A stretch of 59,103 nt of DNA, filler included. It is 8 parts of 8 records of this genome, joined end to end, with 100 filler letters (N's around TTAATTAATTAA, not from the genome) between each part and the next. Parts side by side here need not be neighbours in the genome. Positions count along the whole stretch, not along the records: positions 44,461 to 53,515 come from SRR31147125_29070; 7 more parts are not named here. One strand, 5' to 3'. Below, piece by piece: positions 44,461 through 50,817 of the stretch. The notes beneath the pieces were generated by a model. The model worked only from the letters and a program-made list of their open reading frames with translations. It did not search any database and was not told the DNA's origin. The first letter of the stretch is position 1, and every line of letters starts with the position of its first letter. A program made the translations under genes and the position numbers.

Positions 44461-45587
44461 AAACCATATTCAATGTTGTCTTTTACAACAAAGCCTCTTT
44501 CGGCTTCGGCAACTTGCTTTTTAGTTTTCGATTTTCCTCCAACTTCAAAAGTCAGTTCTCCAATTTCAAAATCAGAAATCTCCGACGAATCAATCTCATA
44601 GCCATTTCTCAGTTGGTTTAAAAAGAAAGTTTCCCTAATATTCCCAACGTTTGGCTTGTCGGTAGCCAGGCCGTACATTAAGTTTGTATTGTCAAGGTAT
44701 ACTTTTTCAACTTTCTGTACCGATTTTAAACCGATAGCCGTATTTCTCAATTGCGAAATCATCCCGGCTTCTTCAACATACAAAAAATAATCAGCCACAT
44801 TATTCCGGCTTACCGACATAGCAGACGCAATTTTACTGAAATTGGGTTTAAAAGGAACACTTTTTGAAATTATTGCCAATAACTGCTTTAGTTTTCTGCC
44901 AGTTGAAACATTCATATTGGCATAATACGGAATATCAATTTCAAGCGTTTGGTTTACAACCTGCTGCAACCGCAGGTCAAAATTTTCTTCCAAAGCAAAG
45001 GGATAATAACCTCTTTTTAGGTAATTATTAAACAAAGGTAAGGGAAACTCCAGCTCCGGTTCTTCAACCTTGTGCGCAATTATTTCTTCTAAACTATATG
45101 TTTTAACCGAAATGTTATGGAAAAGTTGCAAATACTCCCTGAACGACAAACCCTGCATATTGTACATTACCGCCCTCCGACTTAAATCGGCTGCCCCTTT
45201 TTTTATGTCTAGTACCGATGAACCGGTAAATACAACCTTCAATTTTGGATGATAATCGTAAATAAGTTTCAACTCTTTCGACCAGTTATCATACTTATGA
45301 ATTTCATCAATAAATAAATATTTCCCTCCAAATCTTGAAAAAGTATTCGCCAGATCGACCAATCTATTATCGGCAAAATAAAAATCCTCGGCATTAACAT
45401 AAAGAGTCTCGCTGATATTTAAGTTATTTTTTATGTGCTGTAAAACCAGGGTTGTTTTGCCAACTCCGCGCGGACCAGTTAGCCCAATCATTCTTGCTTC
45501 CCAATTAATTAGAAAATGACTGTGCCTTAAAAAAGTATCAGTAGTTTCATCAAGTATTTTCCGAAAATTATCAACTAAAACTTCCAT
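44461..45587 (-). CDS. AAA_14-family ATPase with wHTH-like region and C-terminal PD-(D/E)XK-like motif (3' truncated)
   Basis: Walker A GPRGVGKTT, Walker B LFIDEIHK, FTGSS, KVYLDNTNL, C-terminal 'SDFEI...FEVGGK'. Confidence 0.9.
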
Positions 45588-45621
45588 CGCTACAATTTTT
45601 AATACAAATATATGCTAAATC

Positions 45622-45732
45622 GCACTAACATAGTGCAAATTCTGTCTAAAAATGCATCTATATAGTGCTATTTGCAAGTAAAATTACACTTTAACAAGTC
45701 TAAAAGAGGCAAATTCCGCACTATTAAAGTGC
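45622..45732. repeat. Array of four 15-bp palindromes GCACT-N5-AGTGC at an exact 32-bp period
   Basis: GCACTAACATAGTGC (45622), GCATCTATATAGTGC (45654), ACACTTTAACAAGTC (45686, degenerate), GCACTATTAAAGTGC (45718). A Bacteroidota -7 box TATATTTG lies on the minus strand at 45605-45612. Confidence 0.8.
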
Positions 45733-45875
45733 ACAAAATGACTAACCTTGCCATCTTAACTACCTCGAACCAATCCACGCCGAAGTTTGTATAATTTCTT
45801 TCGATTATTGTAGGTGTTTAAGCTATTTTTGTCGTCATAATGAATAGGAATACATTCAATTAAAACTATACTAAA

Positions 45876-49372: not shown

Positions 49373-49411
49373 TTTTGCTTATCTTTAACTCTAACAAAAT
49401 GCTATATAACA

Positions 49412-50749
49412 ATGTTTTACCGAGAGACAATTGGCAAACTAAGGGAATGGGCAAAAAAAGATAGTCGAAAACCTCTGGTTTTAAGAGGTGCCAGACAAGT
49501 AGGCAAAACGACCGTAGTTGATATGTTTTCGAAAGATTTTGACCAATATATAAAGTTGAATCTGGAGAAAAAACAGGAACGAGATATTTTTGAAACCGAC
49601 TACCCCTTCCCCGATTTATTATCAGCGCTGTTTTTTTATGCAAAAAAAGAACGTACTAATTCCAATACTCTCATATTTATAGATGAAATACAAAACTGCC
49701 CCAAGGCTGTAGCTTTATTGCGATATTTTAAAGAAGAAGCTAATGATCTTTATGTGATTGCAGCAGGTTCGTTGCTTGAGACTATTTTGGATCGAAAAAT
49801 TTCATATCCGGTAGGAAGGGTTGAATTTATGATGATGCATCCGGTATCCTTCCGCGAATTCCTAATTGCCACAGAGGAAAATCAGAGCCTCGAACTCCTT
49901 AATCAGCACGAGGTTCCTTCTTATGCTCACGCTTATCTTACAGGACAGTTTAAAAAATACCTAACAATTGGAGGCATGCCTCAGGTAGTTGAAGAGTATG
50001 CTAAACATAAAGATTTTATGGCATTGCAGGCCATCTACTCAAGCCTTATAAAATCATACATTGAAGATGTTGAAAAATATGCATCTTCACAAACGCAAGC
50101 TCAATACATTAGGCATATTCTGAATACTGCATTCGAACAAGCCGGTACCCGGATAACTATTGAGAATTTCGGCGGTTCAACATACAAATACCGCGAAATG
50201 AAAGAAGCATTCAACATACTTGAAAAAACATTGTTATTCAGACTTGTTTATCCTTCAGTTGAAACAACTATTCCGGCACTGCCAAAGTTGAAAGCGAAGC
50301 CACGGTTGCACACGCTCGACACAGGGTTGGTAAATTTCACAACAAATATTGTAAAAGATTTATTACTGAACGAAGACTTCTCGGATGTATACAAAGGTAG
50401 AGTTGCAGAACATGTAACAGGGCAAGAATTATTGGCAAAATCGAATAGCATAATGAATAAGTTGATGTTCTGGACACGGGATAAAAAACAGTCAAGCGCA
50501 GAAATAGACTATTTGTATCAGCACAATGGGAAACTGATACCTGTAGAAGTAAAAGCCGGTGCCATAGGCAAACTTCGCTCATTGCATCTTTTTATGGATC
50601 AGGCTCCTCACGCCATAGCCGTTCGGGTTTACCAGGGAGAATATTTAGTGCAAAAAGCAAAAACTATTGCCGGCAAAGAGTTTACTCTGCTTAACTTGCC
50701 TTTTTATATGGTTCACCGAATTGAGAGGGAATTAGATAAAATAATGTAA
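49412..50749 (+). CDS. AAA_14 ATPase + DUF4143 (PD-(D/E)XK nuclease-like) protein
   Basis: GARQVGKTT, IFIDEIQ, AAGSLL, GGMPQVV, LDTGLV, C-terminal 'AEIDYL...IPVEVKAG'. Confidence 0.92.
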   Translation: MFYRETIGKLREWAKKDSRKPLVLRGARQVGKTTVVDMFSKDFDQYIKLNLEKKQERDIFETDYPFPDLLSALFFYAKKERTNSNTLIFIDEIQNCPKAVALLRYFKEEANDLYVIAAGSLLETILDRKISYPVGRVEFMMMHPVSFREFLIATEENQSLELLNQHEVPSYAHAYLTGQFKKYLTIGGMPQVVEEYAKHKDFMALQAIYSSLIKSYIEDVEKYASSQTQAQYIRHILNTAFEQAGTRITIENFGGSTYKYREMKEAFNILEKTLLFRLVYPSVETTIPALPKLKAKPRLHTLDTGLVNFTTNIVKDLLLNEDFSDVYKGRVAEHVTGQELLAKSNSIMNKLMFWTRDKKQSSAEIDYLYQHNGKLIPVEVKAGAIGKLRSLHLFMDQAPHAIAVRVYQGEYLVQKAKTIAGKEFTLLNLPFYMVHRIERELDKIM

Positions 50750-50771
50750 CCATTCCTGATTGTAGCTGCCC

Positions 50772-50817
50772 AAGGATGCCATCCTTCAGAGATTTCATAA
50801 AAGCGGATGGCATTCTT
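50772..50817 (+). terminator. Hairpin/terminator after the ATPase (copy 2 of AAGGATGCCATCC hairpin)
   Basis: AAGGATGCCATCC...GGATGGCATTCTT followed by a T-run. Confidence 0.78.

Follow-up and report, generated by a model that had tools for sequence, protein, structure and literature searches.

PDC-S01, an ATPase fused to a PD-(D/E)XK domain, is listed as the fourth most common prokaryotic defence candidate, and tens of thousands of copies are reported (PMC12988326). The accessible literature passages on PDC-S01 cover domain content, abundance and a guilt-by-embedding origin only, and a representative in E. coli B does not appear, in the part of the study available, among the four systems that protect against T4, T5 or T7 (bioRxiv 10.1101/2024.09.26.614923). 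No account of cis-elements, DNA-binding specificity or regulation was found in the searchable DUF4143/COG1373/PDC-S01 literature, supplementary tables excluded, and in its main text the preprint behind the PDC candidates names neither PDC-S01 nor operators. Here we describe two genes of this type, gene A and gene B, each preceded by its own array of short repeats, in a window of 59,103 nucleotides (the whole stretch of DNA analysed), which is made of contigs chained via N/TTAATTAATTAA linkers; both genes lie in the contig at positions 44461-53515. From the arrangement of the sequence it is likely (roughly 65%) that each array is the private cognate operator of the ATPase-nuclease encoded just downstream.

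The iterons of theta-replicating plasmids are phased tandem repeats of about 20 bp beside an autoregulated Rep gene whose product binds them, and they grow by unit duplication. The Rep proteins have two winged helices and neither ATPase nor nuclease, and the place of iterons is in origins. The gene for archaeal Orc1/Cdc6 adjoins asymmetric sites of about 20 bp which are bound by its product. MalT and other STAND-type factors oligomerise in an ATP-driven manner on several asymmetric repeated promoter boxes; MalT has a helix-turn-helix of the LuxR type, activates other operons and is without a nuclease domain. For NrdR the sources describe a pair of boxes in promoter regions, each about 16 bp long and partly palindromic, which are separated by a linker of 15-16 bp and bound by a nucleotide-loaded repressing tetramer (PMC13584703, bioRxiv 10.1101/2024.05.27.596032).

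Two arrays before two ATPase-nuclease genes

Gene A (44462-45587, minus strand) encodes a predicted AAA_14 + DUF4143 ATPase-nuclease of the PDC-S01 type with 375 amino acids; its 3' end is truncated by the end of the contig, about 14 C-terminal residues are missing, and the orthologues are 389 amino acids long. Gene B (49412-50749, plus strand) encodes a predicted AAA_14 + DUF4143 ATPase-nuclease of 445 amino acids, which matches PDC-S01 over its full length. The products are named P0001 (gene A) and P0002 (gene B). Both exceed the Pfam cut-offs for AAA_14 (105.9 bits, E 2e-30, for gene A and 92.5 bits, E 2.7e-26, for gene B; cut-off 27) and for DUF4143 (31.1 and 70.1 bits, respectively; cut-off 28.1). 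The PADLOC profiles for PDC-S01 match P0002 (PDLC04788, E 7.5e-177, residues 1-443) and P0001 (PDLC04787, E 8.1e-30), and by profile both proteins are members of PDC-S01 (Pfam AAA_14 PF13173 and DUF4143 PF13635; COG1373). The two share 29% identity over 178 amino acids of the ATPase part only. Two divergent AAA_14/DUF4143 genes in one contig had been claimed by the first-pass annotation, made from the sequence alone, and are borne out by these matches; the family itself, given there as mostly uncharacterised, is already catalogued as a PADLOC candidate.

Array B (49224-49372, plus strand) consists of five direct repeats TACCYTNAYTYTWMTACA of 18-20 bp, all in the orientation of gene B, and is just as it had been described. 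The repeats start at 49224, 49257, 49289, 49322 and 49355, i.e. at spacings of 33, 32, 33 and 33 bp, with spacers of 12-15 nt; Tandem Repeats Finder returned a period of 33. The final repeat ends 39 nt before the ATG of gene B.

Array A is made of palindromes of the form GCACT-N5-AGTGC. The proximal site 1 (45622-45636) is perfect, lies 35-49 nt upstream of the ATG of gene A and is the counterpart of the -47 site of the orthologues. Site 2 (45654-45668), exactly 32 bp from site 1, has two mismatches and is the counterpart of the -79 site, which is perfect in most orthologues. Palindromes with two mismatches are common across the window (15 found, 12.2 expected), and it is the grid position alone that makes site 2 credible. 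Site 4 (45718-45732) is again perfect, lies 96 bp (3 x 32) from site 1 and has flanks that resemble those of site 1 (72% identity over 29 nt), so that sites 1, 2 and 4 all fall on an exact 32-bp grid. A further site claimed at 45686-45700 (site 3) has, by reading, mismatches in four of the ten arm positions. A match of this quality is no better than chance, although the site may have decayed from a former copy. The palindromes and the 32-bp period reported before gene A thus stand, with three credible sites instead of four or five.

When the whole window was scanned for self-matches, no further multi-copy array with a period of 32-33 bp emerged, in agreement with the first-pass annotation; isolated two-copy self-matches (14-15 of 18 positions, offsets 32-35) occur at 7293, 17645 and 47067.

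Four ATGTATTACAAA boxes are present at 21413-21552 with spacings of 23, 72 and 33 bp, within a non-coding stretch of 1.07 kb upstream of a gene for a periplasmic sugar-binding protein. The box looks like the 3' half of the B-type repeats, and tblastn revealed no AAA_14 gene or remnant nearby. Across the entire window, the surroundings of these boxes included, tblastn found genes A and B only and no third AAA_14 gene or remnant.

Arrays in relatives and specificity of the motifs

Relatives of gene A were collected by a scan of species-representative genomes (80 loci, 38-73% identity), and 74 upstream regions were tested. Pairs of like palindromes are present in 55 of them, and the spacing is always either 32 bp, as in 33 loci, or 33 bp, as in the other 22. 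Such pairs arose in 3/74 mononucleotide shuffles (spacings 15, 38 and 46) and the control region from -450 to -300 in 2/72 (spacings 41 and 57). A cruder test for direct self-matches was positive in 42/74 regions compared with 2/41 control intergenic regions. In most close orthologues perfect GCACT-N5-AGTGC sites lie some 79 and 47 nt before the ATG (-79 and -47); in more distant relatives the layout is the same and the half-site is another (for example TGCTC-N7-GAGCA, TGCACC-N5-GGTGCA, TGCTTT-N6-AAAGCA or TGTAT-N8-ATACA).

A scan with P0002 as single query found no relatives, and an alignment of database homologues was used instead. It delivered 80 loci with 43-67% identity from Bacteroidota, Desulfobacterota, Spirochaetota, Acidobacteriota, Gammaproteobacteria, Ignavibacteria and Fibrobacterota, of which nine were dropped since they had no start codon by the rule used. 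The best 18-nt self-match (score at least 14) lies at an offset of 31-34 or 64-67 bp in 64 of the 71 gene B relatives (at exactly 33 bp in 52), compared with 0/33 control intergenic regions of the same loci and 3/71 shuffles. The first-pass annotation had proposed to look for such a period upstream of homologous genes; with these counts, and the 55/74 for gene A, it is recovered in the relatives of both. At a lenient identity of 11/18, arrays are found in 63 of 71 gene B-type regions (70 relatives and the window), with two copies in 5 regions, three in 41, four in 12, five in 3 and six in 2, and the five copies in the window exceed the usual three. All aligned B-type repeats point toward the gene and share a two-box shape, typically TTACCCTnACTTTGTnACAA. 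In some relatives (e.g. L115) the entire 33-bp unit including the spacer is duplicated, and B-type arrays therefore grow by tandem duplication.

In three loci from Acidobacteriota, Desulfobacterota and Spirochaetota (L155, L159 and L166) GCCCTGACTTTGTGACA-type and GGGTTGACTTTGTG-type repeat variants alternate within one array; the period per variant is therefore 66 bp, that of the array still 33 bp.

The period of 32-33 bp recurs across several phyla, also in relatives with no more than about 29-45% identity. Beyond these relatives it does not hold for the DUF4143 family as a whole: in a broader sample of 21 genes a self-match of at least 14/18 was found before nine, with offsets of 22, 23, 23, 25, 32, 33, 34, 37 and 40, and by eye, one long palindrome or two palindromes adjoin the ATG in most cases. 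The array period differs by clade, and 32-33 bp is not universal. The family is distributed very unevenly, with matches to DUF4143 above the cut-off in 21 of 41 sampled Bacteroidota genomes and 16 matches each in two of them (G014 and G025).

Specificity within one genome was examined in the genomes of two relatives. In one of them (6.5 Mb), four of eight AAA_14-type paralogues examined (L087, L089, L091 and L093) are preceded by repeats with a period of 32-33 bp, and their motifs are all different; identity to gene B is as low as 29% for L089 and 35% for L091, and identity to gene A is 43% for L093. Of the other paralogues, L085 has a long palindrome, the identical copies L081 and L083 have an inverted repeat, and L095 is unclear. 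Perfect GCACT-N5-AGTGC sites number three per genome in two genomes, two of the three being the pair before the orthologue and the third isolated, and the reversed control pattern has no match in either; by a rough estimate from composition, a few chance sites per genome are expected. Perfect copies of the L091 and L089 repeats are confined to their own arrays. When three mismatches are allowed, matches elsewhere number three for the L091 repeat (control 17) and five for the L089 repeat (control 0). In the genomes of these two relatives the perfect motif is thus essentially private to the upstream region of the gene itself, as a self-operator would require.

These results bear on the idea that the sites are bound by another host regulator, or represent a promoter architecture common to these genes. 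Many B-type repeats contain TTTG or TAACTTTG, like the promoter boxes of Bacteroidota, which fits that idea. The motifs nevertheless differ between paralogues of one genome, their perfect copies are essentially limited to the cognate array, and the repeats of array B in the window lack the G of TTTG. Arrays also occur in relatives from Desulfobacterota, Spirochaetota, Acidobacteriota and Gammaproteobacteria, the promoters of which are of a different type from those of Bacteroidota. A foreign regulator or a shared promoter form is accordingly held to be very improbable.

The promoter consensus of Bacteroidota has TTTG at -33 and TAnnTTTG at -7. Judged by this consensus, a putative -7 box of gene A, TATATTTG, lies at 45605-45612 (minus strand), 9 nt downstream of the proximal palindrome, and a putative, imperfect -7 box of gene B, TATCTTTA, at 49380-49387 (plus strand), 7 nt past the last repeat. 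Sigma-70 promoter scans and terminator scans were uninformative for a promoter of this type. Among the relatives of gene A, TAnnTTTG begins 5-10 nt past the proximal palindrome in 34 of 55 loci; among 49 relatives of gene B it follows the last repeat by 5-8 nt in 13, lies within a repeat in 10, is found farther away in 10 and was not found in 16. This placement of the -7 box implies that the proximal site covers roughly the -33 region, and the arrays lie upstream of the likely start of transcription. Position, spacing and orientation of the sites are conserved, and the sites overlap the promoter predicted from this consensus, both as expected of an operator of the gene itself.

In a number of gene B relatives (L113, L119, L123, L137, L141, L144 and others) each repeat holds TAACTTTG or TAATTTTG, which fits TAnnTTTG, and in several of these loci the last repeat ends at the ATG. 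Operator and -7 box may here be one and the same, with a near-leaderless mRNA.

As an alternative, the first-pass annotation had considered transcription of the arrays into units of about 32 nt; with processing of the transcript, this would amount to a mini-CRISPR or small-RNA array. The layout of repeats and spacers is regular enough for this, and array A folds better than its shuffles (z -2.86), as any palindrome would. The RNA of array B does not fold into a structure (-6.9 kcal/mol, z -0.84), the repeats measure 18-20 nt and the spacers 12-15 nt, and in relatives such as L115 the whole 33-nt unit is duplicated together with its spacer. Moreover, the -7 box of the relatives lies downstream of, or within, the last repeat, which leaves the arrays upstream of it, and an Rfam search over the contig gave three sub-threshold matches, none of them at the arrays. 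Processing into small RNAs is therefore disfavoured, with hardly any probability left to it.

Predicted proteins, possible mode of action and neighbourhood

AlphaFold (AF2) models of both proteins are of high predicted quality, with a predicted local distance difference test score (pLDDT) of 92.1 and a predicted template modelling score (pTM) of 0.90 for gene B and a pLDDT of 90.2 for gene A. In both models an AAA+ core is followed by a helical lid, a winged helix and an alpha/beta PD-(D/E)XK nuclease domain. For the protein of gene B, 72 sequences show no variation at D366 and K381 and almost none at E333 and E379, in a canonical D...ExK; for that of gene A, E319, D339, E348 and K354 are invariant among 45 relatives, where the E-x5-K spacing departs from the canonical one. 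In Foldseek the models come closest to archaeal Orc1/Cdc6 on origin DNA (2qby and 2v1u; E about 1e-6), STAND NLRs and the archaeal ATPase 2fna, and the MalT structure 8bob is present in the list. The maximum template modelling score (TM-score) is 0.42/0.51, and for Orc1/Cdc6 the overall TM-score is low (0.25-0.34). A search of PDB sequences with the P0002 family profile gave no match.

The start of helix 3 of the winged helix of gene A (residues 260-264) varies along with the class of the half-site: SRNN goes with GCACT, SRNS with GCTC (L027, L029 and L033), QRPT with TGTAT-N8-ATACA and TRNT with TGCTTT-N6-AAAGCA. R261 is near-invariant, being present in at least 90% of the 45 sequences aligned and replaced by K or D in a few, and by reading the outer TG of the half-sites is retained. 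Together with the shared geometry, the paralogue-specific motifs and the near-private perfect copies, a motif that changes with the recognition helix speaks for the cognate protein-array pair suggested by the first-pass annotation. For the relatives of gene B, a mutual-information scan placed 27 of its top 40 residues in the half with winged helix and nuclease (166 variable columns) and 13 in the half with ATPase and lid (183); the scan is exploratory, confounded by descent and of value as a hint only.

If the arrays are operators of their own genes, the winged helix would read the site, as a dimer per palindrome in the case of gene A and as one protomer per asymmetric 20-bp repeat in the case of gene B. 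The spacing of 32-33 bp, about three helical turns, would set neighbouring protomers in register; from this fixed spacing we propose that their AAA+ modules touch and bind cooperatively, probably under the control of ATP. With the promoter-proximal site over the -33 region, occupancy would set the transcription of the gene itself. Of the two signs, repression is the likelier, as a means to hold a nuclease that may be toxic at a low, buffered level; activation is possible as well, because the proximal site occupies the place of the -33 element. We infer binding, stoichiometry, ATP dependence and sign of regulation alike from these features.

Several observations weigh against the operator reading. 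A distance of 33 bp corresponds to 3.14 turns of relaxed B-DNA, and sites would therefore be on the same face only if the DNA is slightly untwisted. By the criteria used, no array was found in 7-8 of 71 gene B regions and no pair of like palindromes in 19 of 74 gene A relatives, and in the broader DUF4143 sample an offset of 32-34 bp occurs in only 3 of 21 genes. In the relatives of gene A the proximal site replaces the TTTG element at -33 and does not flank it, by which activation is no less possible than repression. The co-variation of motif and winged helix that the first-pass annotation had proposed to test holds as a change of helix with motif class and falls short of a strict code: in L034 it is a TGCAC site that goes with SRNS, the match is confounded by shared descent, and the mutual-information signal in the gene B set shows only mild enrichment in the winged helix (9 of 49 variable columns) and just as much in the nuclease domain (18 of 117).

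The copy numbers and folds also touch on a second reading, by which the ATPase-nuclease is held inactive as an oligomer parked on its own array and is released by a trigger such as phage infection, the chromosomal site being part of the sensing. Arrays with two to six copies, among which the five in the window are above the usual three, would suit a platform of this kind, as would a predicted fold resembling STAND and ORC-like switch ATPases, the conservation of the putative nuclease residues and the listing of the family as a defence candidate. On the evidence given here, such a platform looks the same as simple autoregulation; one array per genome could hold few molecules, and the E. coli B representative mentioned above was not among the protective systems (bioRxiv 10.1101/2024.09.26.614923). 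It is considered rather unlikely. A slightly better, still low chance is given to a combined form, in which the private array would serve as operator, as assembly template and as 'self' licence for a resting ATP-dependent oligomer of the ORC-like PDC-S01 protein, and in which stripping or titration would both raise expression and free the active nuclease. If so, a passing replication fork, foreign DNA with look-alike sites or a phage protein could act as triggers, and one gene with its own promoter would form a self-reporting immune switch.

Between gene A and gene B lies a gene for a GH2 beta-galactosidase, and the remaining contig is housekeeping-like, with an unknown 341-amino-acid protein, a lycopene-cyclase domain protein and a Kdo transferase. 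Nothing in the contig looks like a defence island. The 341-amino-acid protein downstream of gene B was not found in two relatives when used as query.

This context, together with the fold, was weighed with regard to replication, i.e. the arrays as iterons of an origin and the ORC-like ATPase as initiator. Phased direct repeats do adjoin a gene for an AAA+ winged-helix protein resembling Orc1/Cdc6. The genes nevertheless lie among chromosomal housekeeping genes, single genomes hold up to 16 copies, and no Rep family was matched among the window proteins in the Pfam search. Only 73 of 72,556 plasmid records carry relatives; among 50,697 phage records the number is 12, and these matches are unannotated metagenome fragments. 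On context, copy number and distribution, an origin is as implausible as the small-RNA explanation.

Array B and gene B are bracketed by two hairpin terminators on the plus strand, one after the galactosidase gene (49154-49198) and one after gene B (50771-50815), with nearly the same stem. The stem sequence GGATGCCATCC has eight matches in the window compared with 0.53 expected, six of the eight inside these two hairpins, and the near-identical hairpins may reflect the insertion or duplication of a cassette behind the galactosidase terminator. In the genome of one relative (G002), a unit of 1435 bp is 100% identical at two places (L081 and L083); it comprises 72 bp upstream with the inverted repeat, a 400-amino-acid AAA_14 gene and 160 bp downstream, and at L083 a direct repeat of about 24 bp (CCACATACA[AG]GTGACCGTTATG) stands on either side of it. 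Here gene and control region appear, from sequence identity, to move as one small cassette, and the genes seem to travel as array-plus-gene units.

It could be argued that the arrays are not regulatory at all, but recombination or mobility sites of such a cassette of array, gene and 3' tail. The duplicated 1435-bp unit with its flanking repeat and the position of array B and gene B between like hairpins would agree with this, as would the up to 16 copies in some genomes and the varied contexts of the gene A orthologues, in which similarity begins at the distal site. The arrays, in turn, occur only upstream and always in one orientation, they overlap the predicted promoter, and their strict phasing of 32-33 bp has no obvious role in recombination. 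Since the sequences observed to flank the cassettes are elements other than the arrays, a role in mobility is improbable, though less so than a foreign regulator.

Two further features were noted at the borders. Directly past the terminator of gene B, at 50827-50842, TATTTGCA occurs twice in tandem; the next gene starts some 50 nt further on (50891), and the tandem may be its -7 box in duplicate. At the end of the preceding contig, the sequence 44310-44360 (minus strand) looks by eye like a tRNA gene of which the contig end has left the 3' part.

Comparison with known systems

The operator reading, if correct, suggests that PDC-S01 members are sequence-specific DNA binders with a private, readable cognate site beside their own gene. 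The cognate arrays then offer an experimental handle in the form of synthetic arrays, with natural swap controls supplied by the paralogues of one genome, and the many pairs of motif and recognition helix provide natural data from which a recognition code of winged helices could be worked out. Heterologous tests in which the native upstream region is dropped or overridden may misjudge PDC-S01 genes.

The closest published geometry is that of NrdR, whose boxes, in the accessible descriptions, lie 31-32 bp apart from centre to centre and resemble the sites of array A and its orthologues. NrdR differs in its zinc-ribbon and ATP-cone domains, neither of which was found in the Pfam search of the window proteins, in the use of one box motif across bacteria and in its control of ribonucleotide reductase operons, whereas here AAA+, winged helix and nuclease are combined and each paralogue has its own motif before its own gene. 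For array B the nearest likeness is that of plasmid iterons and their Rep gene; unlike those modules, the genes described here are chromosomal, multi-copy and rare on plasmids. Archaeal Orc1/Cdc6 is the best fold match for the modelled AAA+, lid and winged-helix part, but the present proteins have an additional C-terminal nuclease domain and reach up to 16 copies per genome. By analogy, the suggested arrangement also recalls MalT as an ATP-driven oligomer on repeated asymmetric promoter boxes, with differences in the type of helix-turn-helix, the targets and the nuclease. We found no published description of these arrays; in type they would be autoregulatory operator arrays, here on an abundant, uncharacterised family of ATPase-nucleases.

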